A DNA stretch of 47,978 nt from Verrucomicrobia bacterium UBA673 (lineage in GTDB: Bacteria; Verrucomicrobiota; Verrucomicrobiia; Limisphaerales; UBA1096). The stretch spans positions 1 through 47,978 of the forward strand of contig DBNL01000101.1 in assembly GCA_002299785.1 (NCBI GenBank). The letters run 5' to 3'. Of the stretch, positions 1-47,978 are shown piece by piece. The notes under the pieces are model-generated. The model was not told where the DNA came from, did no database searches, and saw only the letters and a list, made by a program, of their open reading frames with translations. The first letter of the stretch is position 1, and the number at the start of each line of letters is the position of its first letter. The position numbers and the translations under genes are program-made.

Positions 1-136
1 CCAGCCGGGACAGGTTATCGGCCTGAGCGATGAGTGTGTAGGCTTGGATGAATGAATCGTTGGGCCCTGCAGCCTGGGCTGTGAACAGGAGGCCAATAGA
101 AAGGACCAGTGTTGTAATGGATGAAAACCGTTTCAC
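1..136 (-). CDS. 5' end of a gene for an exported protein (partial; continues past the window start)
   Basis: Not in the ORF track. The reverse-complement frame from GTG (136..134) reads VKRFSSITTLVLSIGLLFTAQA/AGPNDSFIQAYTLIAQADNLSRL. This is an n-h-c signal peptide with an AQA cleavage site. The frame is open to position 1 and has an in-frame stop 3 codons upstream of the GTG. I prefer it over the featureless overlapping ORF 15..209. Confidence 0.35.
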   Translation of the reverse strand, partial: MKRFSSITTLVLSIGLLFTAQAAGPNDSFIQAYTLIAQADNLSRL

Positions 137-338
137 GCGGGCGATTTAGCCAAAGGTCATTCGAGTTAGCAACCATTGAAAGAGACAAAGTGTCGATTAG
201 CTTGGCCAAAGCGTAGCGATGTAACTTTTTCGTGACAACTGCGTATTACGCGTTAAATTGCCCTGCCTTCGGGCTTTTTCGAGTGAAATAGGACAGACAG
301 GGAGGGAAGTGCATCTTTTCAATTGATGCGAATTTATT

Positions 339-1133
339 TTGGCGGACAATTTGCAAAAACAACGATACGAGCACAAGTACATCATCGGTGATGATGTAGC
401 GTTGTCTGTGCGTGATTTTGTGTCCTCATATCTTGATTTGGATCCTTTCGGTGCGACCCAGCCCAATTTTTCCTACCCGGTGCACAGTCTATATCTGGAT
501 TCCCCGGGTTTGCGTCTTTACCAAACGACGATCAATGGAGACAAAAATCGCTATAAGCTGCGCATTCGCTTTTACGAGGATCGTCCGAAGGCGCCGGTTT
601 ATTTCGAGGTCAAGCGTCGCACGAACAACACGATAGCGAAGGAGCGGGGTGGCGTGAATCGCGAGGATTTAGGGCATGTGCTGAGTGGTCAGTTGCCGTT
701 ACTTGGACAAATGTCCAGCGGGGAGCCGGCACATCGTGCGGCCGTCGAACAGTTCATACATCACATGCAGGAATTGGAGGCGGCACCGAAGGCTCACGTT
801 GCTTATTACCGTGAAGCATGGACGAGTCGTCATGACAACTCGGTGCGTGTGACGCTGGATCGGCAGATCCGGATTGAGGTTGAGCACAAGTCGCATTTGA
901 TAACTCAAATGAAAGATCCCAAGTTAGTGTTTGGCGACAATGTGGTGCTGGAGTTAAAGTTTACCAATCGTTTCCCAGACTGGTTCCGCGAATTGGTCAG
1001 AATATTTGGCCTGACACAATGTGGTGCAGCCAAGTACGTTGACGGAGTCACTGTGTTGGGTTCACAATTCGTTCAGGAAGGGCTGGATTCTAGCGGTTGG
1101 CCAATCGCTCACTCAAGGGAAAAGGTTACATAA
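339..1133 (+). CDS. VTC-domain (CYTH-like, polyphosphate-polymerase-like) protein
   Basis: 264-aa ORF with a TTG start. It has an N-terminal RYEHKY motif, then the basic strand motifs YKLRIRFY and YFEVKRR typical of bacterial VTC/CYTH tunnel proteins. Its usual DUF4956 partner follows 6 nt downstream. Confidence 0.8.
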   Translation: MADNLQKQRYEHKYIIGDDVALSVRDFVSSYLDLDPFGATQPNFSYPVHSLYLDSPGLRLYQTTINGDKNRYKLRIRFYEDRPKAPVYFEVKRRTNNTIAKERGGVNREDLGHVLSGQLPLLGQMSSGEPAHRAAVEQFIHHMQELEAAPKAHVAYYREAWTSRHDNSVRVTLDRQIRIEVEHKSHLITQMKDPKLVFGDNVVLELKFTNRFPDWFRELVRIFGLTQCGAAKYVDGVTVLGSQFVQEGLDSSGWPIAHSREKVT

Positions 1134-1139
1134 CGATTA

Positions 1140-1826
1140 ATGGATCACTGGTTTTTACAAGGAGACTACACTCCGGTTCCCACGGATGTTCCCATGATGC
1201 TTATGGGTTTGCTGCTGGCTTTTGTCTGCGGGCACGCCATTGCATGGGTTTATATGTTCACCCATACAGGGTTATCCTATTCCAGGTCATTCGTTAACTC
1301 TCTTGTGGTTATTCCGACCATCGTTTCGATGGTGATGCTTGTTCTGTCCAATAACCTGGTGACAGCTTTTGGATTGATGGCAATATTTGCCATCGTTCGA
1401 TTCCGCAATGTACTCAGGGATACGCTGGACACCTCGTTTATCTTATCGGTCATCGTCATCGGCATGGCCTGCGGCACGTTAAAATTTGCGACGGCCATAG
1501 CCGGATGCATGATGATCTGTCTGATTATGTTTTACATTCGGATGACTTCGTTCGGTACCCGGCATCGGTACGACACCATTCTCAATCTTCATTGGGAGCG
1601 CTCTGCCCCGGAAATTAGAGTGTTGGACGATATATTCGGGCGTCATACCCGCCGTTCCCGTTGTGTCAGCGAGCGAACGGTTGACGGTTCCTCAGGAGTG
1701 GGTTTTTCCTATCGGTTGCTTTTGCGCGATCCTTCACGCTTGGAGGATCTGCTAATCGAGTTGCGAGAGATGGACGGCGTGTCCCGAGTCACAGGACTGA
1801 AGGCGGAGGCAGAATCAGAAGTCTAG
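1140..1826 (+). CDS. DUF4956-family integral membrane protein (usual partner of bacterial VTC proteins)
   Basis: 228 aa. The N-terminal half has 4 predicted TM helices, with FAIVRFRN followed by a further TM segment, matching my recollection of DUF4956. The C-terminal half is soluble. Tightly packed between the VTC and HlyD-like genes. Confidence 0.75.
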   Translation: MDHWFLQGDYTPVPTDVPMMLMGLLLAFVCGHAIAWVYMFTHTGLSYSRSFVNSLVVIPTIVSMVMLVLSNNLVTAFGLMAIFAIVRFRNVLRDTLDTSFILSVIVIGMACGTLKFATAIAGCMMICLIMFYIRMTSFGTRHRYDTILNLHWERSAPEIRVLDDIFGRHTRRSRCVSERTVDGSSGVGFSYRLLLRDPSRLEDLLIELREMDGVSRVTGLKAEAESEV

Positions 1827-1829
1827 CAC

Positions 1830-2954
1830 ATGAGCGATAAACAGCCCATTCCCATCCCAGCCGAACAAAGATGGCAGGACTTCAGGCAGGTCACCCTGCC
1901 TGTCATCGTGTTTCTGCTCTGCATCGCCGGGGTGATGATTCTTTGGTTCAGTCGCGTCAGCCCGTCTTCAGTGGTGGGCGAGGCGCGTTCAGAGAATATC
2001 GTTCTCTCCAGCCCCCGCCCAGGGTTGTTGACAAAGGTTGCCGTCGGCCGTTTCGACACGGTGAAAGCAGGCGACCCTATTGCCTATATTGATTACTCGA
2101 TGGATCCGGACTTTGCCGACGCAACCGTGGAGTGGGTTCGGGCACAGGTCGATTTGCTCACACTGACCATAGACCCCATGCAGCGGGCGCGGACCACCCT
2201 GAGCTACAATCAGCTCCGATTGGACTGGCTGAACGAGCGGACGTCAGTTGCGGCATTGAAGATCGAGCTTCAGAATTCAGAAAAAGAGTTTCAGCGAATT
2301 GAAAATCTGTTCAAGGACACGCTTGTTTCAGAGTCAGTTTACAACAAGGCCAAGACAGATCGCGACAGCTACGCCGTGCAGGTTCAACAAAAAACCGAGT
2401 TGGTGGCCTCGATAGAGGAGGCCCTCCGCGAGGCACAGGAAAACGATCCGTCAAGCCAGTTGGATCAATCTCAAATCAAGAGACTCGACCAGGGTTTGAG
2501 CCGCGTGGAGAAATTGCTGGATGACATTATTTTATTGTCCCCAATTGACGGCGAAATTGGGAGTATCAGCAAACAAACCGGCGAGAGCGTCCAGGCAGGT
2601 GAGACCATCGCCACTATCAGTTCCACGCAGGTCAAGAAGATCGTTGGATACGTCCCTCAACCCATTTACCTGGAGCCGGAGGCTGGAATGGAGGTTGAAA
2701 TAAGGACACGACGCCCCACCACATCCGGCCTCTTTTCTTGGTTGGGAGTCGACAGGAAAGTTGCCCGGGCCAAGGTGTCCAAGGTCAGCAATCGGCTTGA
2801 GGCCGTCGGAAGCGGTGTACTGAGGAACCGGGCTGCCTACAAAAAAGTTTTACCTTTCACGATTGACTTGGTCGATGCCGAGGGCGAACCAATCAAGCTG
2901 GACATCCATCCGGGCGAGCTGGTCGATATCCACTTCATCAGAGCCGGTGAGTAG
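1830..2954 (+). CDS. HlyD-family periplasmic adaptor / membrane-fusion-like protein
   Basis: 374 aa. One N-terminal TM helix, then a lipoyl-like hairpin half (VKAGDPIAYID), a long coiled-coil segment, and the second hairpin half (LLSPIDGEIGSISKQTGESVQAGETIATI). Starts 3 nt after the stop of the DUF4956 gene. Confidence 0.7.
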   Translation: MSDKQPIPIPAEQRWQDFRQVTLPVIVFLLCIAGVMILWFSRVSPSSVVGEARSENIVLSSPRPGLLTKVAVGRFDTVKAGDPIAYIDYSMDPDFADATVEWVRAQVDLLTLTIDPMQRARTTLSYNQLRLDWLNERTSVAALKIELQNSEKEFQRIENLFKDTLVSESVYNKAKTDRDSYAVQVQQKTELVASIEEALREAQENDPSSQLDQSQIKRLDQGLSRVEKLLDDIILLSPIDGEIGSISKQTGESVQAGETIATISSTQVKKIVGYVPQPIYLEPEAGMEVEIRTRRPTTSGLFSWLGVDRKVARAKVSKVSNRLEAVGSGVLRNRAAYKKVLPFTIDLVDAEGEPIKLDIHPGELVDIHFIRAGE

Positions 2955-2990
2955 CTCTGCCCCTTGGCCAAGCGTTACCCGTCCACGATC

Positions 2991-4808
2991 TTAAATCGTG
3001 TTTTCCAAACCGCTCTTGGCGATCGCTTCCGACATCAGACCTAGCGTCTTGCTGCGCGACACCGAGCCAACCAAGTGCATCTCCCTGTTCGAGTTTACCA
3101 CCGGGATCATCTCCATCTCAGAGCCCATGATCTCAGGCAGGGCATCCATCAACTGCCGGTTGGGTGTTAGGACCGTGTCCACCGGCCGCATCAGATCCAG
3201 CGCGATCACCGCCCGCATCTCGTCCCCCGCATTGAGGTGGGCTTTAACATCTTGAAGCGAAATCACCCCCACTAATCGATTATCTGCGCTTAATACCGGC
3301 AGATAGTTTCGAGGGCTGGCAAGGAAGAGTTCCGAGATTTCAGGCAAGGCTGCCGTCTCCTTGATCGGCGAAGTCGGCCCCACCATCACGTCCCCGATGC
3401 AATGGTCGTAGGCAGATCCCATCCTGCGGTTTTCCTGGTCCACCACCAATCCGCGCCGATGAAGCGGCGCCGAGTAAACCGATGCTTTAAAAAACTTCTT
3501 CGAAACCAAAGTCGCCACCACGCAGCTAATCATCAGCGGCGGCATCAACTCATATTTCAGCGAGATTTCAAATATCAGGATCATCGCCAACAAAGGCGAG
3601 CGGGTGGTTGCTGCCAAGACACTGCCCATGCCGACTAATGCAAAAGCAACCATCGGTGTCTCTTCCGCAAAGCCTAGCAGGCCAAGCGCTTGGCTAAAGG
3701 CCGCCCCAAGACCTGCTCCAAGAAATAGAGTCGGGGTAAACACCCCTCCGATCGTTCCAGCGCCAACCGTGACAACCGTGGCGACGAACTTTGCCACAAG
3801 CAATCCGGCCAGCACAAACAGCGGGATCTTCCAAGCATCGAGACTTTTGAGAACAGAACCCTGTACGAGCACCGAAAACCCTGTTTCCGTTGATTCAGCC
3901 TTCAAAATCTGGTTCGTGACCTCATATCCGTTACCCCAGACACCCGGAAAAACCAAGGCGATTAAGCCAACCGACAAACCAGCCAAGCCAAGTTTCACCG
4001 AGCTTGGCCAAGTACTCTTCTCAGTCGCGGACTCAACTTTCTGAATCGACTTTAGAAAAAAAGCACCCCCAACGCCTGAGAGTGTTCCCAAGATTAAAAA
4101 CCAACCCATTTGTGAAAACCGGGCTGCTTGGTTGAAATCAATCGATTCGGGCAGCACATACCAAGGCTCAATGCCAAACCAAAATCGTGAAACCATCGTG
4201 GCCACAACCGAAGCCATGACCAACGGAGCAAATAGGTTCATCGAAAAATTCCCAACCAAAACCAAGGCGGCAAAAAGTGCTCCAGCAATCGGGGCATTGT
4301 AGGCGGCAGCCAGACCGGCCGCCGCCCCACATGCAACCATCAGTCGAAGCCGATAAGGCTGCCATTGGTGAAATTGACCCCATTTAGACGCAAAAGTAGC
4401 CGTTAACTGCGTAATCGCCCCCTCCCGGCCAATCGAAGCCCCCGTCCCGATACTTAAAAGGGACGACCAAGCATGAATCAGCGTTGCCCGCATGCCAAGC
4501 CGACCATCTCCAACGGCGACTGCCTCCAAAACATTCGTAACCTTCTTGTTTCCAGAAAGATGTGTTCTAAGCAAAAGAACCAATCCAGCCAACAAACTAC
4601 CTAATGTAGGAATAATAATCCTCTCAAAAGAGCTCAAACCCTGAGCCAAATCCCCTGGAGAGTCAGATTGCCAAAAAACGATCCACTGAATTGAGTTCAC
4701 CAAAAATAAGAACACCAGATTCACTAATCCACCAATGACACCAATAAAAGCAGCCAAAAAAAGGTGAAATGCCTCCTCATTAGCCATGATTCGATTGATT
4801 AGTTTCAT
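2991..4808 (-). CDS. ClC-family chloride channel / H+:Cl- antiporter with a C-terminal CBS pair
   Basis: Polytopic membrane protein with the ClC selectivity motifs GSGASIGREGAITQ-like (IGTGASIGREGAITQ) and GGVFTPTLFLGA. The C-terminal roughly 140 aa resemble two CBS domains. I chose the start at the second Met (MKLINR, 4808). The ORF is open to 4853, and 4787 (MANEE) is also possible. Confidence 0.88.
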   Translation of the reverse strand: MKLINRIMANEEAFHLFLAAFIGVIGGLVNLVFLFLVNSIQWIVFWQSDSPGDLAQGLSSFERIIIPTLGSLLAGLVLLLRTHLSGNKKVTNVLEAVAVGDGRLGMRATLIHAWSSLLSIGTGASIGREGAITQLTATFASKWGQFHQWQPYRLRLMVACGAAAGLAAAYNAPIAGALFAALVLVGNFSMNLFAPLVMASVVATMVSRFWFGIEPWYVLPESIDFNQAARFSQMGWFLILGTLSGVGGAFFLKSIQKVESATEKSTWPSSVKLGLAGLSVGLIALVFPGVWGNGYEVTNQILKAESTETGFSVLVQGSVLKSLDAWKIPLFVLAGLLVAKFVATVVTVGAGTIGGVFTPTLFLGAGLGAAFSQALGLLGFAEETPMVAFALVGMGSVLAATTRSPLLAMILIFEISLKYELMPPLMISCVVATLVSKKFFKASVYSAPLHRRGLVVDQENRRMGSAYDHCIGDVMVGPTSPIKETAALPEISELFLASPRNYLPVLSADNRLVGVISLQDVKAHLNAGDEMRAVIALDLMRPVDTVLTPNRQLMDALPEIMGSEMEMIPVVNSNREMHLVGSVSRSKTLGLMSEAIAKSGLENTI

Positions 4809-4875
4809 CTCAAAAAAGCAGTAAACGGAGACCGAGCAGCCCTTTTTTTTCAAGAACCTAACGGATTATGAGGAG

Positions 4876-4892
4876 TGAGTCAATTTGACTCA
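4876..4892. promoter_or_regulatory. Perfect 17-bp palindrome TGAGTCAA-T-TTGACTCA upstream of the ClC gene (candidate operator)
   Basis: Read directly from the sequence. It lies 68 to 84 bp upstream of the preferred ClC start (24 bp from the longest possible start), inside a 546-bp AT-rich divergent spacer. Confidence 0.3.
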
Positions 4893-5399
4893 GTGAAGCT
4901 AAGTCTAAAGATAAGTTTGGCTGGTCATATGCTCTCGTTAAGACGACGCAATTCATGGAAGTGAATGTCTCAATAAATCAAAAATTATTTAGCTTTTCTA
5001 AGTTGTGGCGAACTAAGCGGGCGAAGTCGTTCGTCGCATCATTTATTATACACTCAACGTACTTGTTTCAAACCAAGCCATTTGAACACATGAGACTCAA
5101 GTGCACTTTTGGAAACTTGTGAAACGTGCGAACAAGAATGCCTGTTTCCGAGGTTATTTGATTGACGTTAAACTCTAATTAAGTTGCGGTCGAGGTAACT
5201 TAAATTGGGCCCTTTCCAAGCCCCAGACTAAGTCTTCAAATGGGCAAGTTTAAGTAACTTGGACTAATTCTTCAGATCAATTTTTTCGGTGCGGAATAGC
5301 ACGCTTTTTTTTGTCTTACAGGGCTTGGCCAAGGGACGGCCTTTGTTTAGTTTGTGCTTTTCCGTTTTGGGCTAGTCGCTTGCCCAAGCGGATAATCAC

Positions 5400-6632
5400 A
5401 TGAAAATCAATAGTGTTGAGGCTTTTCTGGTTTCCTGCCCATTGCCGGAGCCGCTGGTACTGCCGTTTTATGGTGGGGAGAGAACCGTGTTGAAGCGGGA
5501 TGCGATGTTCATTTGTGTCACGGCGGATAATCGGCTTCAGGGGTTTGCCCCGGGACCGGCGCATGAGAGGGCTGAGCGTGAGATTCGTGAGATTATCTCT
5601 CCGTTCTTAGAGGGGCGCGATCCCAGCGCTTGGACAAGTTTTGATTTCAAAGGCGACTTGGAACTGACCAAGACGTATCAGGCCGTGGAGATTGCCGTCA
5701 TGGATTTGATGGCCCGATTTGAAGGGTGTCCGTTAAGTGACATCACGGGAGGGGCCAAGCGGGACAGGATCAAGCTTTATGGCAGCGCGGGGATGTACAT
5801 GGAGCCGGAGCGATTCGCGGAGGAGGCTGTGGCGATAGCCGGGATGGGGTTTTCAGCCTACAAAATGAGGCCGGCGCGAGGGCCTGATGCGGATTTGGAG
5901 ACGATGCGGCAAATGCGCGCTGCGGCCGGGCCGGATGTTGGGCTGATGATCGACGCGCATTCTTGGTGGCGGATGGGGGATAAAACTTATTCGCTTGAGA
6001 CGATTTTAGGCTTGGCCAACGCAATGGCTGAATTTGCCCCGACTTGGCTGGAGGAGCCTTTGCCGCCAGAGGATCACGAGGCGTACGCGCGGTTGAAGGA
6101 TGCTGCGAAGTTTCCAATTGCCACCGGGGAGCATGAGCCGGATGAAGCGGGCTTCATGGATTTGTTTGACAAGGGTTGCGCAGATTTCATCCAGATGGAT
6201 GTATGTTGCCAAGGTGGTTTTGCGATGGGCCGACGAATTTTTGAGAAGGTGAAGCAACATGACCTTCGATTTGCGTTTCATAGTTGGGGCACAAATCTGG
6301 AAGTGCTTGCGGCAGCGCATCTCGGCGTTTGCTGGGAGGAGGATGTTGTGGAGTGGTTGGAGTTTCCGTGCTACTCGAATGATGGCCGACCCGGGATGTA
6401 TCCGTTCCCGGTGGCAGATGAAATCCTAAAGGAACCGCTTGCGATGAAAGACGGTTATCTAATTTTGCCGGACGGGCCGGGGCTGGGTATTGAAGTGGAC
6501 AAGAGTATCGTCGAGAAATACCCCTTTATCCCCGGGCCTTGGTCTTATTTCAGAATCGACTCGCCACCGGAGACGGTGGCCGTGACAGGCGACCACAGCG
6601 TCAAGTGGATTGAGGGTGATCAACCAAATTAA
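5400..6632 (+). CDS. Enolase-superfamily enzyme (mandelate racemase / muconate lactonizing family; probable sugar-acid dehydratase)
   Basis: 410 aa. Capping-domain N-terminus, then barrel motifs in the expected order: KMRPARG, IDAHSWW (metal Asp), LEEPLPPED (metal Glu), ATGEHE (metal Glu). Followed 6 nt later by a GntP permease gene. Confidence 0.8.
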   Translation: MKINSVEAFLVSCPLPEPLVLPFYGGERTVLKRDAMFICVTADNRLQGFAPGPAHERAEREIREIISPFLEGRDPSAWTSFDFKGDLELTKTYQAVEIAVMDLMARFEGCPLSDITGGAKRDRIKLYGSAGMYMEPERFAEEAVAIAGMGFSAYKMRPARGPDADLETMRQMRAAAGPDVGLMIDAHSWWRMGDKTYSLETILGLANAMAEFAPTWLEEPLPPEDHEAYARLKDAAKFPIATGEHEPDEAGFMDLFDKGCADFIQMDVCCQGGFAMGRRIFEKVKQHDLRFAFHSWGTNLEVLAAAHLGVCWEEDVVEWLEFPCYSNDGRPGMYPFPVADEILKEPLAMKDGYLILPDGPGLGIEVDKSIVEKYPFIPGPWSYFRIDSPPETVAVTGDHSVKWIEGDQPN

Positions 6633-6638
6633 ATTCAA

Positions 6639-8147
6639 ATGGATCCGCTGATTATTTTGTTGATAGGGATGGCTGTGGTGATCGGCGGTGTCTTGTGGTT
6701 GCGGTTGCATGCTTTTATGGCGCTGATCGGTGGGGCGTTGGTGGTTGGTTTGCTGGCAACGCCGGATGCCATCAAGGAGTCGGTGATGAATGATACCCGG
6801 ATTGAAAAAGACATTCTTAAACAGGCGACCAATCGACTTGGCCAAGACGATCCAAACTTAACTAACTTGGTTCAGGAGTTGCACAAAACCAAGGCCAAGC
6901 ACACAGCGGCGCAGTCTGTGATTTCCCGGGTTACGGGTGCGTTTGGAAAGGCATGCGGCAGCTTAGGGATTCTCATCGCGATGGCTGCGATCATTGGCAA
7001 ATGCCTTTTGGAGAGTGGCGGTGCAGAGCGGATCATTCGATCGGCGCTGGGGCTGCTCGGCGAGAAACGTGCACCGCTGGCTTTCACTGGAAGTGGGTTC
7101 CTGCTCGGCACACCGGTTTTCTTCGACACAGTTTTTTATTTGATGATCCCGCTTGGCAAAGCGCTGGCGATGCGGTTTCGCGAAAACTACGGGCTATACA
7201 TCATGACAATCGTGGCCGGTGCGACTATGGCGCATTCGCTGGTACCGCCGACACCGGGGCCCTTGTTCGTGGCCGTTCAACTCGATGTCGAGCTAGGAAT
7301 GATGATCCTGATGGGGTTGGTGGTCGGTTCGGTGGCGTGCGCGACTGGTTATGTTTATGCCAAGTTCGTCAACGTGCACGACAAGTGGCAGGTGCCGTTG
7401 CGCGACTCGGCTGATTTGCCCTTGGCCAAGCTGGAGGAGATAGCTCAGCGCGACAACAAATCGCTGCCATCGCTTGGCCTAGCGTTGCTGCCGGTGCTAT
7501 TGCCGATTGTGCTAATCGGCGGCAACACCATTCTTCAAAAGCTCATCGCTGCCCCGCCGGTCGGTTTGGCCTATTTTCTTGGCTTGGTCGGCGACAAAAA
7601 CATTGCGCTGATTATTGCGGCGGCTGTGGGGCTTGGCTTATTGGCGATGCAAAAACGAGGTGACAAGCAGGCGCTCTTCGACTCCGTGCAATCGGCCTTG
7701 GCCAGCGGCGGGGTGGTGATTCTGATCACAGCCGCTGGCGCGTCGTTCGGATCGATGCTGCAGCAGACGAACATCGCAGCGCGCATCGGCGGTTTGGCGG
7801 CGGATTTTGAAATCACCGGGCTGCTTCTTTTACCGCTTGCTTTTTTTGTGACGGCGGTGGTGCGCACGGCGCAGGGCTCGGCGACGGTTTCGATGATCAC
7901 CTCGGTGGGCATTTTCGCAGGGATGGCGGCAACACTGCCGTTCCATCCAGTCTATTTGGCGCTGGCGATTGGCTGCGGTTCAAAGCCGTTTCCGTGGATG
8001 AACGACAGCGGCTTCTGGGTGATTAACCGGATGAGCGGAATGACGATCCGCGAGTCGATTCGAAGCGTCTCGTTTCTGATGACTGTAATGGCGATCGACG
8101 GCTTGGTTGCCGTGATGTTGCTCGCCTGGCTGTTCCCGATGAGTTAG
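6639..8147 (+). CDS. GntP-family (gluconate/sugar-acid:H+) permease
   Basis: 502 aa, polytopic. The N-terminus (MDPLIILLIGMAVVIGGVLWLRLHAF) is GntP-like, as is SGGAERI. A hydrophilic segment of about 45 aa between TM1/2 and the first re-entrant region looks like an insertion compared with enterobacterial GntP as I remember it. Confidence 0.8.
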   Translation: MDPLIILLIGMAVVIGGVLWLRLHAFMALIGGALVVGLLATPDAIKESVMNDTRIEKDILKQATNRLGQDDPNLTNLVQELHKTKAKHTAAQSVISRVTGAFGKACGSLGILIAMAAIIGKCLLESGGAERIIRSALGLLGEKRAPLAFTGSGFLLGTPVFFDTVFYLMIPLGKALAMRFRENYGLYIMTIVAGATMAHSLVPPTPGPLFVAVQLDVELGMMILMGLVVGSVACATGYVYAKFVNVHDKWQVPLRDSADLPLAKLEEIAQRDNKSLPSLGLALLPVLLPIVLIGGNTILQKLIAAPPVGLAYFLGLVGDKNIALIIAAAVGLGLLAMQKRGDKQALFDSVQSALASGGVVILITAAGASFGSMLQQTNIAARIGGLAADFEITGLLLLPLAFFVTAVVRTAQGSATVSMITSVGIFAGMAATLPFHPVYLALAIGCGSKPFPWMNDSGFWVINRMSGMTIRESIRSVSFLMTVMAIDGLVAVMLLAWLFPMS

Positions 8148-8165
8148 CGCCGCCTGGAGCGAGGC

Positions 8166-8735: not shown

Positions 8736-8786
8736 CGGCGGGCAAAGTACAATTCAAATCCTGCTTGGCCAAGCGCGGAGGGGAAA

Positions 8787-11323: not shown

Positions 11324-11328
11324 GCCGC

Positions 11329-17246: not shown

Positions 17247-17270
17247 TTTCCTCGAACTAAAACTTTTCTT

Positions 17271-31029: not shown

Positions 31030-31081
31030 GATCGTCGATTTGGATTTCTCATCGGCTGCGTTTCTGTTACACCCAGCGGCC

Positions 31082-38353: not shown

Positions 38354-40072
38354 TCACATACGCTCAGTGGTCTCGAGGCCAAGCGTTTCGAGGCCGGTAT
38401 TTAGCACTTTGCCGGCGAGATCGCAGAGGGCTAGTCGTTGCATGCGGATGTCGCCCTCGGCCTGGAGTACGGGGCAGTTTTCGTAAAACGAGGCGAAGTG
38501 CCCCGCCAGTTCGTAGAGGTAGTTACAGAGGTAGTTCGGGCGGCACTCGTCGATGACCAATTCGAGCACGAGGCCAAACCTCAACAGGTGCTTGGCCAGC
38601 GTGAGTTCCTCCGCCTGGGCAAGCGCAAACGACTCAGGGCGTGTCAGCGACTCGTCGCCAAGCTTTCGGAAGATGCTGCGGATGCGCGTGAAGGCGTAGA
38701 GCAGGTATGGCGCGGTATTGCCGACGAGTGCGAGCATGGTGTCCCAGTTGAACACGTAGTCGCTCTGTCGGTTGCCGGAGAGGTCGGCGTACTTGATTGC
38801 TCCGATGCCGACAACGCAGGCGATATGGCGTCGCTCCTCCTCGGGGAGGTTGGGGTTTTTTTCGCTCACGGCGTCGAAGGCGCGTTGCTCGGCCTCGTTG
38901 AGCAAACCGGAGAGGCGGATGATTTCGCCGCTACGCGTCTTGAAAGGCTTGCCATCCTCTCCGAGGATCGCGCCGAACCAGACGTGGTTGAGCTTCATGC
39001 CGTGACCCGGTTTCCAGCGGTTATACAGCTCGAAGAGTTGCTGGAAGTGTAGTTGCTGCCGGCCGTCGGTGACGTAAATGACTTCGCTCGGCTGCCAGCT
39101 TTTTTTACGGTGCTCGAGCGTCGCGAGGTCGGTCGTGGTGTAGTTAGCTGCGCCGTCGCTTTTCTGGACGATGGCCGGATGTTTCTTGAGCGACTTGTGA
39201 TGATTAAAAAAGACGACCTGCGCGCCGTCGCTTTCCTCCGCTATGCCTTGAGTGACGAGTTCGTCGACGACGCCCTTGAGGCGGTCGTTGTAAAAACTCT
39301 CGCCGAGCGTCTCGTCAAAATCGACACCGAGGCGGCCGTAAATCTCGTCAAACTGATGCCGGGACAACTCAATCATTTCATTCCAAATGGCCAGATTTTC
39401 TATGTCGCCGCTTTGCAGCTTAACGAGCTCGCTCCGTGCGCGGATGAGTACGATCTCGTCTAGTTCGCAAGCGGAGTTGATGAGCTTGTAGAGGCGCTCC
39501 ATCTCGGCGAGGGCGTCCCTGCCAAGCGCGTCCCGGTCGAGGTATTCCTTCCAGCCGACGAGCAGTTTGCCAAACTGCGTGCCCCAGTCGCCGATGTGAT
39601 TGTCGGTCACTACGCTGTGGCCGAGCAGTCGGAACGCTTTGGCCAAGGTGCTGCCGAGAATGGTCGAGCGTATGTGACCAACGTGCATCGGCTTGGCCAC
39701 ATTGGGCGACGAGTAGTCGATAACGATGGTGCGAGGGTCAGTGGCGGTACGGTAAAAAAGATGCTCTCCTTTGGCCGCGCCGACGAGGGCATCGGAGAGG
39801 GCTTCGGTCTTGAGCCGGAAATTGAGAAAACCTGGCCCGGCGATCTTAATCGGTTCGCAGTAGTCATCGACGTCGAGTTGATCGACGACTTGGGCGGCGA
39901 GTTCACGAGGGTTGAGTTGGTTGCGCTTGGCCAAGCCCATGAGAGCGTTGGATTGATAGTCGCCAAACTTCGGTTCGGGACAGGGGCGGACGAGGACGCT
40001 TGAGACGTCGGCATCGGGCATGAGCGCGAGGACGGTTTGCTGCAGTTTTTCCTGTAAGACGAGATGAATCAC
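38354..40072 (-). CDS. argS: Arginine--tRNA ligase
   Basis: 572 aa. N-terminal Arg_tRNA_synt_N-like region, HIGH motif ([16 protein letters not shown]), and a C-terminal DALR anticodon-binding end ([17 protein letters not shown]). Confidence 0.95.
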
Positions 40073-40081
40073 GGTTGGAGT

Positions 40082-40095
40082 CGCTTGGCCAAGCG
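40082..40095. repeat. Perfect 14-mer CGCTTGGCCAAGCG (in the 60-bp spacer between ptsN and argS)
   Basis: Read directly from the sequence. Confidence 0.95.
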
Positions 40096-40132: not shown

Positions 40133-40597
40133 TCAGCCCTCCTGCGAGGTGCGGATGATCTGGTACATCTCCGCGGCGTCGCCAGCATCCTCGAGGGACT
40201 TGCGGAATTCATTCTTGTGCAGCACCTTCGCGATCTTGGCCAGCGTATGGAGGTGTTTTTGGAACTGACCCTGTGGCACGAGGAAAAGCATCACGAGATT
40301 GACTGGCTGGTTGTCGAGCGCGTCGAAGTTGACACCCGCCTTGCTGCGTCCGAAAGCGCCGGTGACGTCGTCGATCAGGTCGGTCGAGGCATGCGGTATG
40401 CCGATACCGAACCCGATGCCAGTGCTCATTGAGGTCTCGCGTTTCTTGACGACAGAGACGATGGCCTCGCGGTGTTCGGACTTGATACGTCCCTTGTCGA
40501 CCAGTAAATCGATCAGTTCCTCGATTGCTTCCCAGCGATCAGAGGCTTTCAGATCCGTTACAACCTGCTCTTTGGTGAGAAAATCAGCCAGCTCCAT
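40133..40597 (-). CDS. ptsN: PTS EIIA-type-2 domain protein (PtsN / EIIA-Ntr-like)
   Basis: 154 aa. Start is MELADFLTKEQV..DL.A.D.WEAIEEL; the phosphorylatable His context is GIGIPHA; LFLV follows. Layout is typical of EIIA-Ntr. Confidence 0.8.
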   Translation of the reverse strand: MELADFLTKEQVVTDLKASDRWEAIEELIDLLVDKGRIKSEHREAIVSVVKKRETSMSTGIGFGIGIPHASTDLIDDVTGAFGRSKAGVNFDALDNQPVNLVMLFLVPQGQFQKHLHTLAKIAKVLHKNEFRKSLEDAGDAAEMYQIIRTSQEG

Positions 40598-40712
40598 GAT
40601 ATGCGCCCAACACCGTATCCCGGCCCGGATTTGCTACCCTTTATTGGGGCGGCTTACAAGCGCGAACTTCATTGCCAAATCGATAGACAAACTCCAGACT
40701 GTCCCTGCCCAA

Positions 40713-41456
40713 ATGAATATCATAGTCAAGCATTGCGTAGGTTTGGCCGCGGGTATTGCCGCCTGGGTTTGTGTCGGCTTGGCTGAGGAAGCGGCCAATC
40801 TGCCGTCGGTGGACGATATTATCAAGCGGAACGTCGAGGCGCTCGGAGGCGAGAAGGCCATGCGCAAACTGAAGAATCGCGTGGCTCGGGGGAAGATCGA
40901 GTTGGCCGTATTCGGTGCGGAGTTCCCTGTCATCATGCGGCAGACGGTGCCCAATAAGGAAATGATGGAATTGACGATTGAGGAGTTGGGGACGATTCGC
41001 GACGTGTTCGCCGGAAGCAAGGGCTGGACGGAAACGCCCGATGGGACGGTGACCGAAAAAAAGGAGCGTGAATTGGCCAACAAAAAAATTGACGCTGATT
41101 TTTACGCTTACCTGAATTTCAAAAAAAACTATTCCACGATTAAGTTGCAGGGCGTGGAGAAGGTAGACGGTAAAAAAGTCTTTGCTGTCAGGATGACGCC
41201 GAAGAAAGGGGATGCCGACACGTTTTATTTTGATGCCGTGACGGGATTGGTTGCCGGTGTTGCCTCCACCGCTGAGATGCAGGGGCAGGAGGTTAAAACG
41301 AGGGTGCTTTTTCGAGGCTACAAGGCTGTGGACGGAGTGCAGATCCCGCACACTCTGGAACTGGAGGAGCCGGCATCCGCTGGGTTTACGATTCGGCTTG
41401 AGTCGGTGAAGCACAACGTCAAGCCCGACTCCAAATGGTTTAAGAAAGCGAAGTGA
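40713..41456 (+). CDS. Secreted protein of unknown function (possibly a LolA-like/outer-membrane-lipoprotein-sorting-like fold)
   Basis: The start is set at MNIIVKHCVGLAAGIAAWVCVGLA (signal peptide). The upstream part of the track ORF (40299..) is antisense to ptsN. The mature protein starts SVDDIIKRNVEALGGEKAM..LKN..A.G, a pattern I associate with LolA-like beta-barrel domains. Unverified. Confidence 0.6.
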   Translation: MNIIVKHCVGLAAGIAAWVCVGLAEEAANLPSVDDIIKRNVEALGGEKAMRKLKNRVARGKIELAVFGAEFPVIMRQTVPNKEMMELTIEELGTIRDVFAGSKGWTETPDGTVTEKKERELANKKIDADFYAYLNFKKNYSTIKLQGVEKVDGKKVFAVRMTPKKGDADTFYFDAVTGLVAGVASTAEMQGQEVKTRVLFRGYKAVDGVQIPHTLELEEPASAGFTIRLESVKHNVKPDSKWFKKAK

Positions 41457-42112
41457 GCGAGCGGGAGAAGATTGTCTCGGGGATTGAGGCCGAGGGACTG
41501 GTGGCGATCGTGCGCGTGCCGCGGCCAGAGTTGACGCTGCCGTTGGCCAAGGCGCTTGTTGCGGGAGGTATCCGGGCGGTGGAGTTGACGATGAGCATAC
41601 CCAATGCGCTCGAGGCGGTACGGACGATTGACCGCGAACTCGGCGACAAAATTTTGCTCGGAGTCGGCACGGTAATCGACGACGACACGTGCCGGGCGGC
41701 GATCGATGCTGGGGCGAAGTACGTCATCAGCCCGATTACCCGGCCGTCACTTGTCGCGGCGGCGCACGCGCTAGACCGGCCGGTGATGCTGGGTGCCTAT
41801 ACGCCGACCGAGGCACAGGCCGCACACGAGGCCGGCTCGGACTTCGTCAAGATTTTCCCGGCCGACACGCTTGGCCCAAGCTATATCAGGTCGCTACTCG
41901 CGCCGCTGCCTCACCTGAAAATCGTCCCCACAGGCGGGGTGAATCTCGACACGATGGAAGCATACCTTGCGGCAGGCTCGGCGGCGCTGGGCACAGGCTC
42001 GGCCCTGTTGAAAAAAGAGATCATCGCCGGCGAAAACTGGGAGGAACTTGAGCTCCTGGCCAAGCGGTTCGCCGATAGGGTGTCCGGGCTGAAAGCCAAG
42101 ATGTTGCTGTAA
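41453..42112 (+). CDS. eda: KDPG / KHG aldolase (Eda family)
   Basis: 219 aa. GIRAVELTM, the Schiff-base Lys context FVKIFPA, and PTGGVN. The GTG start overlaps the previous stop. Confidence 0.85.
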   Translation: MSEREKIVSGIEAEGLVAIVRVPRPELTLPLAKALVAGGIRAVELTMSIPNALEAVRTIDRELGDKILLGVGTVIDDDTCRAAIDAGAKYVISPITRPSLVAAAHALDRPVMLGAYTPTEAQAAHEAGSDFVKIFPADTLGPSYIRSLLAPLPHLKIVPTGGVNLDTMEAYLAAGSAALGTGSALLKKEIIAGENWEELELLAKRFADRVSGLKAKMLL

Positions 42113-42166: not shown

Positions 42167-42982
42167 GTGACTGAAAAACTTACCATCGGGTTCATTGGCG
42201 CTGGAAAAATGGCGGCGGCCCTGGCGAAGGGCTTCGTCAACGCCGGTATAGTTTCGCCGGAAAGCCTTATTGGCAGCGATCCGGTTTCGGCCGGCCGCGA
42301 GGCGTTTGGCCAAGAGATTGGTTGCGAGACGACCGACTCGAATGCCGAAGCTCTGACGAAGGCCAAGGTCGTTTTTTTGGCGTTCAAGCCGCATCAACTC
42401 GACGAGGCGACGGAGGCGGTGCGCGACCAGTTCGATGAAAGTCATCTCGTGATTTCAATCCTGGCGGGAGTGCCCCTGGCCAAGCTCGATGCAGCTTGCG
42501 GCGGGCGGGCGCGGGTGGTTCGCGTCATGCCCAACACGCCAGCGCTGGTGGGCGGGGGCGCTTGTGGCTATGCGCTTGGTCAATCGGCGACAGCCGAGGA
42601 CGGCGAGTTGGTTAAGCGGTTGTTGTCCGCTGTCGGCGTGGCTTACGAGGTGAAGGAGGGGTTGATCGACGCCGTGACTGGGTTGAGCGGTAGCGGCCCT
42701 GCATACGGGTACATGATCATCGAGGCACTGAGCGATGGCGGCGTGGCGGCGGGTTTACCCCGGGGCATCTCCACCCGTTTGGCAGCACAGACGATGCTGG
42801 GGGCGGCGAAGATGGTACTCGAGACAGGCAAGCACCCCGGCGAACTCAAGGACATGGTTTGCAGCCCGGGCGGCACGACGATCGAGGGAGTTCACGAACT
42901 GGAGGAGGGCGGCTTGCGCAGCGCACTCATCAACGCCGTGCGAGCAGCGACAGAGCGGGCAGTCGAACTTGGATTGGAATAA
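42167..42982 (+). CDS. proC: Pyrroline-5-carboxylate reductase
   Basis: 271 aa, GTG start. Rossmann motif IGFIGAGKMAAALAKG, then VMPNTPALVG, SGSGPAY and SPGGTT. Confidence 0.92.
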   Translation: MTEKLTIGFIGAGKMAAALAKGFVNAGIVSPESLIGSDPVSAGREAFGQEIGCETTDSNAEALTKAKVVFLAFKPHQLDEATEAVRDQFDESHLVISILAGVPLAKLDAACGGRARVVRVMPNTPALVGGGACGYALGQSATAEDGELVKRLLSAVGVAYEVKEGLIDAVTGLSGSGPAYGYMIIEALSDGGVAAGLPRGISTRLAAQTMLGAAKMVLETGKHPGELKDMVCSPGGTTIEGVHELEEGGLRSALINAVRAATERAVELGLE

Positions 42983-45744: not shown

Positions 45745-46173
45745 GCAAGCACACCGCGCTTTAGTAACCGTGAGGATTTCGGAGCTTAAGATAGAGAACA
45801 GATAACTTTTTACATCAGATTATGTTGCATATTCTTGTTATGAAGCGATCACCTTCATCCCTCTTTTAAATTTTCACATTTACAATAGTTACCGGCTGTC
45901 GATTAAAGTAATTTAGCTTCTTCAGGCTAGGTTGCCGCACCCTCAGGGGGCACACTCCTAATGCACTAAAATATCCTATGGCACTCGACGTTCGCATAGC
46001 AATAAAGAACAGTGTCATAAAAATTCAGTTTATCCCGGTGCGGGTGTGCATTGAGTTCCAGCCGAACAGGGAAGACGGGTTCAAGGAAAATGGTTTCGAT
46101 CTCTTGATCTCGTTGCCCTTGAGCAAGCGCTTGCGGGGTTGGGGAGTGCACACGGTTTGCTCCAGCGCTTGGC

Positions 46174-46204
46174 CAAAAAAAGACCGGCGGTTTATCGCCG
46201 GTCT
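46174..46204 (-). terminator. Rho-independent terminator of glnII
   Basis: On the minus strand there is a 9-bp stem AGACCGGCG / CGCCGGTCT with a 6-nt loop, followed by T7. It begins 26 nt after the glnII stop. A TTGGCCAA copy (46169) abuts the T-tract. Confidence 0.8.
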
Positions 46205-46230
46205 TTGATTTAATGGGGTAGAGGCCGGGT

Positions 46231-47247
46231 TTAAGCAAGCGCCTTTTTGGTGGTCTTGATGATGGCGGCCGCGATTTTGTACGGGTCGCCGTTGGACGCT
46301 GGGCGACGGTCTTCCAAGCGCCCTTTCCAGTCATTATCGACAGTGCCAATTGGGACGCGGATGGAGGCGCCACGGTCGGAAACTCCGTAGGAGAACTGGT
46401 CGATCGCTTGGGTTTCATGAAGACCGGTGAGGCGTTGGTCATTGTCGGCGCCGTACACGTCGATGTGCTCTGAAATATTCTTGCCGAATTCCTCACAAAT
46501 CTTGTTCATGAGAGGCTCGCCGCCCTGATCGCGCATGGCTCCGTTGGAGAAGTTGGCGTGCATGCCGGAGCCATTCCAGTCGCCCTTGATGGGCTTTGGC
46601 TCCAGATTGACGGAGACGCCGTAACGCTCGCCAATGCGCTCGAGCAGGTATCGTGCAACCCACATTTCGTCGCCGGATCGGGCTGCGCCCTTGGCAAAAA
46701 CCTGATACTCCCATTGCCCCATCATGACCTCGGCGTTGATGCCCTCGACATTGATTCCTGCATCGAGGCAGATTTGCAAATGCTCATCGACAATGTCCCT
46801 GCCTATTGCGTTGGCAGCACCGACGGAGGTGTAGAAAGGACCCTGCGGGCCGGGGAAACCGCCTTTCGGGAAACCAAGAGGGAGATTTGTGTCGGTGTCC
46901 CACAAGACATATTCCTGCTCGAAGCCGAACCAGAAATCGTCGTCGTCATCGTCGATGGTGGCTCGGCCGTTGGACTCGTGCGCGGTGCCGTCGGCGTTGA
47001 GGACTTCGCACATGACCAGCCAGTTGTCGGTACCGATCTTGTCGGGGTCCGGAAACAGGGCAACTGGCTTGAGGAGGCAATCGGAATCGTTGCCTGCAGC
47101 CTGCTCGGTCGATGAGCCGTCAAATGACCACATTTTGCAGTCTTCCAATGTTCCACCAAAATCGGTCTCGACCTTGGTCTTGCTTCGCAGGCTTTGGGTC
47201 GGCTTGTAGCCGTCCAGCCATATGTATTCTAGTTTCGCTTTACTCAT
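46231..47247 (-). CDS. glnII: Type II (eukaryote-like) glutamine synthetase
   Basis: 338 aa. Start is MSKAKLEYIWLDGY.PT..LR.KT. Then FDGSST.QA, WFGFEQEY, GINAEVMMGQWEYQ, NGSGMHANFS and DRGASIRVP. Co-linear with rhizobial GlnII as I recall it. Confidence 0.9.
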   Translation of the reverse strand: MSKAKLEYIWLDGYKPTQSLRSKTKVETDFGGTLEDCKMWSFDGSSTEQAAGNDSDCLLKPVALFPDPDKIGTDNWLVMCEVLNADGTAHESNGRATIDDDDDDFWFGFEQEYVLWDTDTNLPLGFPKGGFPGPQGPFYTSVGAANAIGRDIVDEHLQICLDAGINVEGINAEVMMGQWEYQVFAKGAARSGDEMWVARYLLERIGERYGVSVNLEPKPIKGDWNGSGMHANFSNGAMRDQGGEPLMNKICEEFGKNISEHIDVYGADNDQRLTGLHETQAIDQFSYGVSDRGASIRVPIGTVDNDWKGRLEDRRPASNGDPYKIAAAIIKTTKKALA

Positions 47248-47453
47248 GTTTTTAGGGATAAAAATTACGCAATACAGCCTGAAACCTTACTGGCCTACAA
47301 AACAAGGGCCCGCTCAAGGCTCATAGCCATTAGGGGTACTAATGACATGGTTTTCAAGTCTTTTTTCGCTGTCGTTGACTGCGTAATCACGGTTTAGATT
47401 AAAATCAACGCACTGTTCGGTTTGGCCAAGCTGGCCTACAAACATTGGAGGTA

Positions 47454-47469
47454 TGCAATTACAATGCCA
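47454..47469 (-). promoter_or_regulatory. Candidate sigma-54 (-24/-12) promoter for glnII
   Basis: The minus strand reads TGGCAT-TGTAA-TTGCA, matching TGGCAC-N5-TTGCW at the GG and GC dinucleotides with the exact spacing. The -12 element lies about 205 nt upstream of the glnII ATG. Confidence 0.5.
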
Positions 47470-47731
47470 ATAATTGAAGTTCCCTTTGTCAATTGCTTGA
47501 GTGAAGGCACATTTTCTCTGTAACCGTTGTTAATTTAATACAAAAGAAATCGGCCGGATACCAAGCGTTTGTGTTGCGTTATTCTAGCCTAAATGAGCAA
47601 AAAGAAACAATTTGTAAAAAATGTGTATTGCTTTTGAGTCGAGGCACTCGCATGAAAGTTTCCTTTTTGATGCGCATAAGTCGTTGTGACGCTGCTCATT
47701 ATCAAGTTAATATAATATAACTGAAAAATAA

Positions 47732-47747
47732 TGGCATTTATATTGCT
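47732..47747 (+). promoter_or_regulatory. Candidate sigma-54 (-24/-12) promoter for the downstream exported-protein gene
   Basis: The plus strand reads TGGCAT-TTATA-TTGCT with exact GG-N10-GC spacing. It lies about 113 nt upstream of the ATG at 47860 and is divergent from the glnII candidate promoter. Confidence 0.5.
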
Positions 47748-47859
47748 CCTAAGTGATTGGTCTCAAGCTGGTTAGATTTTATAGAAGATTCGTTACATTG
47801 GATCTGCCTGCTAGACTGGGTTAATAATAGTTTACCAAACCAAAACAACTGAATTATCA

Positions 47860-47978
47860 ATGAAGAGATTCTCTTATATTCTATCGTTAATGGCAGGCTT
47901 TTGCCTGATCTCGTTCCCCGCCTTCGCTCAAGAAGCAGCAGCAGCTATTGCAGAAGCATCTACAGCTGAGGAAACCGC
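47860..47978 (+). CDS. 5' end of a gene for an exported protein (partial; runs off the window end)
   Basis: Not in the ORF track. ATG at 47860, then MKRFSYILSLMAGFCLISFPAFA/QEAAAAIAEASTAEET, a clear signal peptide, open to the window end. Function unknown; an ammonium transporter or porin would fit the context but is a guess. Confidence 0.5.
   Translation, partial: MKRFSYILSLMAGFCLISFPAFAQEAAAAIAEASTAEET

Follow-up and report, generated by a model that had tools for sequence, protein, structure and literature searches.

A highly iterated palindromic octamer of the HIP type in an uncultured lineage of marine Verrucomicrobiota

Copies of the palindrome in the window

The window analysed here, the whole 47,978-bp stretch of contig DBNL01000101.1, is ordinary chromosomal DNA with a G+C content (GC) of 55.6%, and carries genes for arginyl-tRNA synthetase (ArgRS), RpoD, a UvrA-like protein, DinG-like and DEAD-box helicases, DsbD, peptidases, transporters and a two-component system. 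Distributed over these genes and the spacers between them are 37 exact copies of a single palindromic octamer, TTGGCCAA, corresponding to 771 copies per Mb or approximately one copy per 1.3 kb (Table 1). This octamer is the most frequent one in the window, the next eight octamers in the ranking all overlap it, and the runner-up palindromic octamer is present in 8 copies. The motif is a real and new highly iterated palindrome (HIP) in Verrucomicrobiota, and in the following sections we describe its enrichment, anatomy, distribution and evolution, and the process that probably maintains it.

Many of the copies belong to longer palindromes. The 10-mer CTTGGCCAAG accounts for 18 copies (49%), the 12-mer GCTTGGCCAAGC for 10 (27%) and the 14-mer CGCTTGGCCAAGCG for seven (19%; starts at 20240, 30013, 30211, 31015, 33431, 36755 and 40082), and three of the copies are perfect 16-mers (starts at 30012, 30210 and 31014). 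The same numbers of octamers, 10-mers, 14-mers and 16-mers had been counted by eye in a first-pass annotation of this window. Its octamer coordinates were all correct except one (9500, the true start being 9499), and the one-off variants that it listed at 21304 and 14039 were recovered, while the copy of TTGGCCCAA placed at 41876 lies at 41871. The copies are evenly spread, with 4-8 per 8 kb, and the spacing between them is slightly more even than random (coefficient of variation 0.78 vs 0.96, p = 0.09).

Table 1. Copies of the octamer TTGGCCAA and of its extensions in the window, with the coding sequence (CDS) or spacer in which each lies, the peptide reading of coding copies and, where recorded, the state in the related loci L119, L120, L122 and L126 (see text)
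Feature	Position	Location and reading	Related loci
Copy	202-209	Non-coding, upstream of VTC-domain gene 339-1133	
Copy	1097-1104	CDS 339-1133 (+), G-W-P-I	
Copy CTTGGCCAAGCG	2964-2971	Spacer between convergent genes 1830-2954 (+) and 2991-4853 (-)	
Copy (10-mer)	4004-4011	CLC channel gene 2991-4853 (-), W-P	
Copy (10-mer)	5325-5332	Non-coding, 68 nt upstream of gene 5400-6632	
Copy	6012-6019	CDS 5400-6632 (+), L-A-N	
Copy (10-mer)	6838-6845	GntP permease gene 6639-8147 (+), L-G-Q	
Copy (10-mer)	7422-7429	GntP permease gene 6639-8147 (+), L-A-K	
Copy (12-mer)	8765-8772	51-bp spacer, co-directional genes 8166-8735 (-) and 8787-10037 (-)	
Copy	9499-9506	Aminotransferase gene 8787-10037 (-), L-A-K	
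Copy	11909-11916	Histidine kinase gene 11314-12570 (+), L-G-Q	
Copy (10-mer)	12867-12874	Sigma-54 activator gene 12510-13940 (+), L-A-K	
Copy	13107-13114	Sigma-54 activator gene 12510-13940 (+), L-A-K	
Copy (10-mer)	15256-15263	CDS 13995-15890 (+), L-G-Q	
Copy	18186-18193	Wzz/tyrosine-kinase gene 17322-19508 (+), L-A-N; sole copy in block 15978-20170	
14-mer CGCTTGGCCAAGCG	20240-20253	Non-coding, downstream of gene 19544-20170	
Copy	23039-23046	CDS 22933-23661 (+), L-G-Q	
Copy	23899-23906	DinG-like helicase gene 23658-25760 (+), V-G-Q	
Copy	25905-25912	DsbD gene 25823-28003 (+), V-G-Q	
Perfect 16-mer GCGCTTGGCCAAGCGC	30012-30027	M3 peptidase gene 28020-30149 (-), R-L-A-K-R	Kept in L119, L120
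Perfect 16-mer	30210-30225	Class-I methyltransferase-fold gene 30184-30990 (-), L-G-Q-A	Kept in L119
Doublet CTTGGCCAAGCGCTTGGCCAAGCGC	31005-31029	Divergent spacer, gene 30184-30990 (-) vs DEAD-box helicase gene 31040-32326 (+); copies 31006 and 31018 in 12-bp register, joint 20-24 bp perfect palindrome, core 31006-31025	
14-mer	33431-33444	CDS 33382-33930 (+), L-G-Q-A	Kept in L119, L120; octamer also in low-GC L126
Copy (12-mer)	33823-33830	CDS 33382-33930 (+), G-L-A-K-R	
Copy	34162-34169	M10 peptidase gene 33927-35696 (+), I-G-Q	Kept in L119, L120
Copy	34629-34636	M10 peptidase gene 33927-35696 (+), L-A-K	
14-mer	36755-36768	UvrA-like gene 35693-38350 (-), L-G-Q-A	Window-specific; one-/two-base variants in L119, L120
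Copy	37637-37644	UvrA-like gene 35693-38350 (-), V-G-Q	Kept in L119, L120
Copy	39639-39646	ArgRS gene 38354-40072 (-), L-A-K	Window-specific
Copy (12-mer)	39927-39934	ArgRS gene (-), G-L-A-K-R	Kept in L119, L120, L126; one-off in L122
14-mer	40082-40095	60-bp spacer between PTS-EIIA gene (40133-40597, -) and ArgRS start	
Copy	41073-41080	CDS 40713-41456 (+), L-A-N	
Copy	41543-41550	KDPG aldolase gene 41453-42112 (+), L-A-K	Kept in L119, L120
Copy	42306-42313	P5C reductase gene 42167-42982 (+), F-G-Q	
Copy	46169-46176	Convergent spacer 45745-46230	
Copy	47422-47429	Non-coding, upstream of glutamine-synthetase-like gene 46231-47247 (-)	

Enrichment of the octamer over chance

We compared the observed number of octamers with Markov models and with synonymous-codon shuffling, two controls suggested in the first-pass annotation, and the count lay far above both expectations. 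Models trained on the whole window predicted 0.69 (order 0), 1.2 (order 1) and 3.9 (order 3) copies. Over-representation of the octamer is 54-fold, 30-fold and 10-15-fold at these orders, respectively; the highest count in 100 order-3 simulations was 9. For the 14-mer, 7 copies were observed and 0.005 expected (order 3). Higher-order models trained in the same way approached the observed count (25 at order 5 and 35 at order 6), because the training data contain the motif itself. When the 37 sites were masked during training, orders 0-6 predicted 0.7-6.8 copies, leaving at least 5-fold over-representation up to order 6. Within-gene shuffling of synonymous codons yielded 3.2 ± 1.7 coding copies (maximum 9 in 1000 shuffles) against the 27 observed, an 8.5-fold excess. 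Likewise, 27 of the 49 peptide contexts able to encode the octamer do carry it, where codon usage predicts 3.3.

The coding copies are found on both coding strands and are read as LA(K/N) in 13 cases, (L/V/I/F)GQ in 12 and WP in 2, in agreement with the earlier tally except that the second class, given as approximately 13 (L/V)GQ, is slightly smaller and includes I and F at its first position. Although 73% of the copies lie inside genes, the non-coding DNA, 8.4% of the window, holds 10 of the 37 (binomial p = 7e-4), an approximately 3.5-fold enrichment in spacers; the excess noted previously is thus upheld with corrected figures (nine copies in about 7% had been given). Copies occur alike in promoter-side, co-directional and convergent spacers. 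The survival of the enrichment after codon shuffling, together with the use of three frames and of spacers, bears out the proposal that the motif spreads at the level of DNA and not as a shared protein motif.

One could suppose that the octamer simply follows from base composition, from codon usage or from a preferred amino-acid motif, and the unmasked models of orders 5 and 6 come near to the observed count. This explanation has a negligible probability in our view, given the low expectations of the masked models and of codon shuffling, the involvement of all three frames plus non-coding DNA, and the existence of relatives of similar GC (62-66%) without the motif, as described below.

A role in termination or initiation of transcription was also considered and rejected. 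No exact copy was detected within a terminator-like hairpin with a T-run in a terminator scan of the window, and promoter-like matches at the motif copies were at background level. The sole motif-like sequence flagged by the terminator scan was a variant palindrome, CCCTTGGCCAGGGG, at 28006-28019, which comes immediately after the stop codon of dsbD and precedes a T-rich run.

Anatomy of the site

Alignment of the window copies showed C, G and C at positions -3, -2 and -1, mirrored downstream (CGC...GCG), and no information further out. Among 112 14-mers, only a weak preference for G/C was detected at the next position, beyond which complementarity did not exceed chance. The unit is (G)CGCTTGGCCAAGCG(C), two-fold symmetric and sequence-specific, as expected from the graded, extended palindrome described at first pass. 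Since the flanks hold no information beyond this unit, the motif is neither a mobile nor a REP element, nor a fragment of a longer repeat. Generic quasi-palindrome correction was rejected as the origin of the extensions, the flanks past the 14-16-mer being complementary only at chance level. Half-sites on the plus strand numbered 21 and 20, and these equal counts indicate the absence of strand polarity.

Variants of the site, half-sites and hexamer palindromes were counted in pooled DNA of the clade to which the window belongs (approximately 1 Mb). Among sites of the form CGC-N8-GCG, 308 had a perfect TTGGCCAA core. One-off cores deviated 31 times at position 1/8 (28 of these being T>C), but only 4, 9 and 5 times at the inner positions 2/7, 3/6 and 4/5. 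In both main frames, certain transitions near the centre would leave the encoded amino acid unchanged. The centre, TGGCCA, is invariant in the sense that it almost never deviates among well-flanked sites.

Adjacent sites recur in an exact 12-bp register. We identified 20 perfect doublets of the form TTGGCCAAGCGCTTGGCCAA at no fewer than 19 independent loci, each forming a perfect palindrome of 20-24 bp (examples are L022 5025, L040 7436, L075 2515 and L258 3174), and no triplets were seen. The tail-to-tail junction of half-sites, CCAAGCGCTTGG, was present 99 times in the approximately 1 Mb, against 11.5 expected (order 5). Hexamer half-sites were enriched only head-to-head (436) and in the 12-bp tiling, all other spacings and orientations being at background.

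Distribution of the motif among related genomes

No protein identical to the ArgRS of the window is on record. Its homologues fall into three tiers, the first (95-84% identity) consisting of proteins of marine metagenomes and of metagenome-assembled genomes (MAGs) that are labelled Pedosphaera sp. or Verrucomicrobiota, the second lying at 78-80% and the third at 66-68% identity. The source is an uncultured marine Verrucomicrobiota lineage labelled Pedosphaera or Verrucomicrobiales. In a scan for the 14-mer using one genome per species, at least approximately 20 MAG species of marine Verrucomicrobia accounted for half of the matches listed and frequently carried 2-5 copies in 8 kb, whereas all other taxa among the matches listed gave single, chance-level matches. 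After exclusion of the seeding 14-mers, the Verrucomicrobia MAG loci held 0.4-1.1 further octamers per kb, compared with 0.05 per kb elsewhere. Similarly, 71 of the 120 stretches listed in a metagenome scan for the 16-mer carried 0.35-1.9 extra copies per kb.

Among loci in synteny with the window, those of high ArgRS identity were rich in TTGGCCAA: L119 (90% identity, GC 61%) contains 14 copies in 21.7 kb, L120 (86%, GC 58%) 19 in 21.7 kb and L376 (84%, GC 57%) 13 in 11.9 kb. In the sister clade, three copies were found in 21.7 kb of L126 (80%, GC 42%), one in 21.7 kb of L122 (78%, GC 40%) and one in 18.7 kb of L377 (78%, GC 41%), even though these three loci have the gene order of the window in common. 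The more distant loci L124 (66%, GC 62%) and L125 (67%, GC 66%) carry three copies and one copy, respectively, each in 21.7 kb and neither with a 10-mer. Because these last relatives are motif-poor at GC 62-66%, high GC alone does not yield the motif. Whether the motif is lineage-specific had been raised at first pass, and these results indicate that it is: it is abundant in about 20 related MAG species, and absent as an iterated element from the syntenic sister clade and the outgroups.

The sister clade is unusual in its base composition. L122, L123, L126 and L377 have the same gene order as window positions 22933-47247 at a GC of 40-42%, against 55-62% in the motif-rich clade. This large shift in GC is found at only 20-22% ArgRS divergence, and it coincides with the absence of the motif.

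Conservation, gain and loss of copies

To follow individual copies, codon alignments of 15 orthologous genes were made, and the window, L119 and L120 were compared. Many copies occupy the same position in the three genomes, although the identity of synonymous codons is only 61-71%. The motif was kept in 50 of 78 ordered comparisons (64%), compared with 96 of 382 (25%) for other palindromic octamers (Fisher p = 1.5e-10); for palindromes of 50% GC it was 12 of 78. Of 20 sites scored over the three genomes, 6 were present in all, 7 in two and 7 in one. The differences between the genomes at these sites are single substitutions, as in CGCTTGGCCAAGCG, CGCTTGGCTAAGCG and TGCTTAGCCAAGCG, and the coding copies are in frame without insertions relative to their orthologues. 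Two near-identical MAGs, L120 and L121, differ at only 6 positions, none of them at a motif site. Copies thus arise by point substitution and are preferentially retained, and the constraint acts on DNA, most strongly at TGGCCA. The description of the motif at first pass as a family in both renewal and decay agrees with this combination of conservation and single-base gains and losses.

The accumulation of copies has also changed proteins. At the L-A-K codons of the ArgRS copy at 39927, the outgroups have CTC GCC AAG and the clade TTG GCC AAG. The amino acids of the low-GC sister clade differ at most sites, with SSAKD in place of RLAKR and AAAQW in place of AIGQW as examples. Over the same genes, LA[KN] occurs 15-16 times in motif-rich genomes and 4-5 times in the sister clade, and [LFIV]GQ 9-10 and 3-4 times, respectively. 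Both tripeptide classes are 2-4 times commoner (about tripled) in the motif-rich genomes, while the reversed control tripeptides are not raised. Two motif sites are retained in the low-GC L126, and these few sites hint that the system may predate the split of the clades and have decayed in the low-GC lineage.

An origin from remnants of a miniature mobile element or REP-like repeat with many insertions would account for a palindromic, repeated and spacer-enriched sequence. Repetitive extragenic palindromic (REP) sequences, bacterial interspersed mosaic elements (BIMEs) and miniature inverted-repeat transposable elements (MITEs) are imperfect palindromes of 20-40 bp or more, which are extragenic and spread in a transposition-like manner. 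The motif resembles them in being repeated palindromic DNA enriched between genes. However, its flanks hold no information beyond ±7-8 bp, its genic copies lie in conserved housekeeping genes, in frame and without insertions, and copies and non-copies in orthologues differ by single substitutions, so that this origin is very improbable. A duplication in a related MAG might be cited in its support: at L001 1938-2367, a unit of 208 bp is duplicated in tandem (2.1 copies, 99% identical), and every junction bears the 14-mer CGCTTGGCCAAGCG. Judging from this single case in a MAG assembly, motif copies may serve as end points of duplication or recombination.

The copies are sparse in one part of the window, the polysaccharide-export block at 15978-20170 (porin-like protein, Wzz/tyrosine kinase and Poly_export), which has a GC of about 51% and one copy in 4.2 kb. 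This low density fits a more recent acquisition of the block, in which the motif has not yet accumulated.

Other palindromes and a phage-like contig

The pooled clade DNA avoids several hexamer palindromes, namely, GGGCCC (observed/expected ratio 0.16), GAGCTC (0.23), CAGCTG (0.25), CCGCGG (0.36) and GGATCC (0.42), a pattern typical of restriction pressure. By contrast, TGGCCA is 2.8-fold over-represented. The invariant centre of the motif corresponds to the recognition sequences of MscI/BalI (TGGCCA) and HaeIII (GGCC), which recalls restriction-modification systems. Targets of active restriction are normally avoided, whereas TGGCCA is in excess here, both in the clade and in the phage-like contig described next, in the presence of avoidance of other palindromes.

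In a viral collection, the first 120 matches to the 14-mer included one clearly motif-rich phage-like contig, and the 27 stretches matching the 16-mer were at about chance level. This contig, L195 (IMGVR_UViG_3300032087_002358 in IMG/VR; 13.7 kb, 1-13670), encodes a terminase large subunit, a DnaB helicase, a DnaD-like loader and an exonuclease. It contains 8 copies of TTGGCCAA, tied as its top octamer with the overlapping CTTGGCCA (8), and 20 of TGGCCA, but none of CAGCTG, GGGCCC, CACGTG, GGATCC, GAATTC, CTGCAG, GCGCGC, AAGCTT or CCGCGG. L195 is probably a phage of the clade, which shares the motif of its host while avoiding restriction-type palindromes. This single contig suggests that restriction in the host does not target the core of the motif, and that the process building the motif also acts on phage DNA.

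Comparison with known iterated elements

Cyanobacterial HIPs range from 500 to 2500 copies per Mb, with 15-300-fold over-representation of HIP1 (GCGATCGC), and are accompanied by cognate methyltransferases, usually orphan, that recognise the motif or its core. HIPs are further characterised by a periodicity of 10-90 kb along the chromosome; in the 48-kb window, a weak tendency to even spacing was seen. Alternate HIPs in this phylum are GGGATCCC, TCGATCGA and GGCGCC, as well as CAGGCCTG in Synechococcus PCC 6312, a GGCC-centred octamer reported as over-represented in one cyanobacterium (Xu et al. 2018, PMC5861425). Like these, TTGGCCAA is a perfect 8-bp palindrome that is the top octamer of its DNA, at approximately 770 copies per Mb, with observed/expected ratios in the tens and with copies in coding DNA (all frames) and non-coding DNA. 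Its extensions keep the palindrome, it spreads by point substitution, its orthologous copies are kept above control palindromes, its deviations concentrate at the ends and seldom affect the centre, and it is lost in some low-GC relatives. Every phenomenological property of HIPs that could be tested here was found, and the resemblance to HIP1 proposed at first pass is supported in density, in conservation above control palindromes and in the position of deviations.

The differences are also distinct. The core of TTGGCCAA is GGCC/TGGCCA without GATC, the host belongs to Verrucomicrobiota and not to cyanobacteria, the information extends to 14-16 bp, doublets recur in a 12-bp register, and the cognate methyltransferase of HIPs was not found in the low-power screen of approximately 1 Mb of clade DNA. 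With both the sequence and the phylum differing, the motif is not HIP1 itself, but an element of the same kind.

Uptake signal sequences (USS) of Pasteurellaceae and DNA uptake sequences (DUS) of Neisseriaceae occur at about one copy per kb, are clade-specific, lie in genes and spacers, affect peptide composition and presumably spread by molecular drive, DNA that carries them being preferred by a competence system (type IV pilus receptor, ComEC, DprA). They lack palindromic symmetry, and inverted pairs of DUS are frequent at terminators. The motif may likewise be a self-recognition sequence, with a competence receptor preferring motif DNA and with uptake and recombination spreading the copies by molecular drive. 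Its density (about 0.8 per kb), clade specificity and conserved orthologous positions agree with this, as do its presence in all frames with a measurable tripeptide footprint, as reported for USS, and its enrichment in spacers. HIP1 itself is proposed, in recent work, to enhance natural transformation, so that this explanation overlaps with the HIP-type process favoured below. Nevertheless, known uptake sequences are asymmetric, while the motif is a strict palindrome with symmetric arms and is not paired into terminators, and its host-level density in the phage-like contig is not readily explained unless that contig is an old prophage. We regard an uptake sequence as unlikely.

The footprint itself raises another possibility. 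A graded, two-fold symmetric site of 14-16 bp is typical of helix-turn-helix dimers, and each copy might be kept by direct selection for the binding of an abundant dimeric protein, either nucleoid-associated or involved in organising the chromosome. The exact 12-bp register of adjacent sites suggests side-by-side binding, the sites are conserved, their spacing is slightly even, and a role in chromosome structure has been argued for HIP1. On the other hand, more than half of the permissive peptide contexts carry the motif, a saturation that looks like genome-wide drive, the phage-like contig shares it, and no candidate protein was found. Moreover, known palindromic organiser sites such as parS, matS and the binding sites of Noc (NBS) and SlmA (SBS) occur in tens of copies per genome, mostly in defined regions or at promoters, and do not reach a density of about one per gene. 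Unlike these sites or the operators of transcription factors, the motif is present at approximately 0.8 copies per kb, evenly spread and mostly inside genes. Direct selection on such sites appears quite improbable to us.

A probable mechanism

TTGGCCAA is a lineage-specific HIP-type palindrome, and we give a probability of roughly 0.6 to the reading in which it is driven by a protein system that influences the persistence of alleles. New copies form anywhere in the chromosome by ordinary point substitutions, and, once formed, persist far longer than the neighbouring sequence. The force on DNA suffices to bring rare synonymous codons (TTG for Leu) to fixation and even to substitute amino acids. 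Its source is presumably a sequence-specific protein system that recognises the site as a symmetric dimer and biases the survival of alleles. This system would act on all DNA replicating in these cells, which would explain the motif in the phage-like contig. It may already have existed in the ancestor of the GC 55-62% clade, the low-GC sister clade lacking it or having lost it.

The candidate for this system would be, as proposed for HIP1, an orphan methyltransferase with linked mismatch correction acting on the TGGCCA or GGCC core (Elhai 2015, PMC4390886), which by analogy is the best-supported model. Alternatively, the system may consist of methylation-dependent DNA uptake or recombination. 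Two recent preprints (bioRxiv 10.1101/2024.09.10.611283 and 10.64898/2026.06.24.733823) propose that HIP1 enhances transformation and recombination in dependence on methylation. According to this work, HIP1 also co-varies with proteins interpreted by the authors as a DNA-uptake (type IV secretion) system. Conservation of sites has been used to argue for selection on HIP1 (Xu et al. 2018).

Several points weigh against a driven HIP-type palindrome. First, conserved sites alone do not separate selection for function from continuing biased repair or uptake. Second, the window has a mild excess of one-off octamers (1.5-1.9 times) and not a depletion. Third, the recurrent doublets are not predicted by a simple model of this kind, and no single type II methyltransferase is known to have a specificity as long as the graded footprint of 14-16 bp. 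Fourth, the phage evidence consists of one contig only. Finally, the clade DNA screened yielded no recognising protein: a low-power search by catalytic-motif regular expressions and Pfam detected no DNA methyltransferase (C5, N4/N6) or Vsr-like gene in the approximately 1 Mb, a sample of well under one genome equivalent from which absence cannot be concluded.

The candidates raised by the regular expressions proved to be unrelated proteins (TPR/cytochrome, FG-GAP, sulfatase, seryl-tRNA synthetase, DUF1501 and Band 7). A 247-aa protein encoded beside ArgRS, which was seen at this locus only in motif-rich genomes, was also rejected; its N-terminus resembles a signal peptide, and it is therefore probably exported and unlikely to bind DNA.

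Novelty and significance

In the searchable literature, we found no description of TTGGCCAA as an iterated genomic motif, nor of any HIP-like element in Verrucomicrobia, and full-text searches for uptake sequences in Verrucomicrobia likewise gave no description of the motif, in line with the first-pass annotation, which had known of none. The same literature contained no highly iterated palindrome outside cyanobacteria, every example being cyanobacterial. About 30 years after HIP1 became known, debate over its function continues, with biased repair, a role in chromosome structure and uptake of DNA as the alternatives. The occurrence of another case in an unrelated phylum, and with another sequence, shows that the phenomenon is a general one, not a peculiarity of cyanobacteria.

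We tentatively propose, at somewhat less than even odds, that the motif represents an independently evolved HIP system outside cyanobacteria, in which dedicated recognition machinery, for instance an orphan TGGCCA/GGCC methyltransferase with linked repair or a receptor for methylation-dependent uptake or recombination, marks the whole of the resident DNA, that of the clade's phages included, and thousands of codons have been rewritten by it. If this is true, the genes responsible could by analogy expose what HIP1 does. Motif-rich species beside a syntenic, motif-poor sister clade provide a natural contrast for genes that co-vary with the motif, and since the sister clade is fully syntenic and lacks the motif, a comparison of gene content could name those responsible. 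The approximate tripling of LAK/LGQ is a clear example of a force at the level of DNA that reshapes protein sequence. In addition, the motif is a simple marker for assigning contigs of marine metagenomes, and possibly phages, to this Verrucomicrobia lineage.

Other features of the window

A PTS-EIIA-like gene of 154 aa lies at 40133-40597 (-), across which a mechanically called open reading frame, 40299-41456 (+), is over-extended. The true start of the plus-strand gene ending at 41456 is 40713, and its product is 247 aa long. The RpoD homologue encoded at 20731-22893 carries an N-terminal extension of approximately 140 aa that matches the histone H1-like HC2 family, and a 15-bp sequence is repeated three times in tandem at 21033-21077, within this extension.

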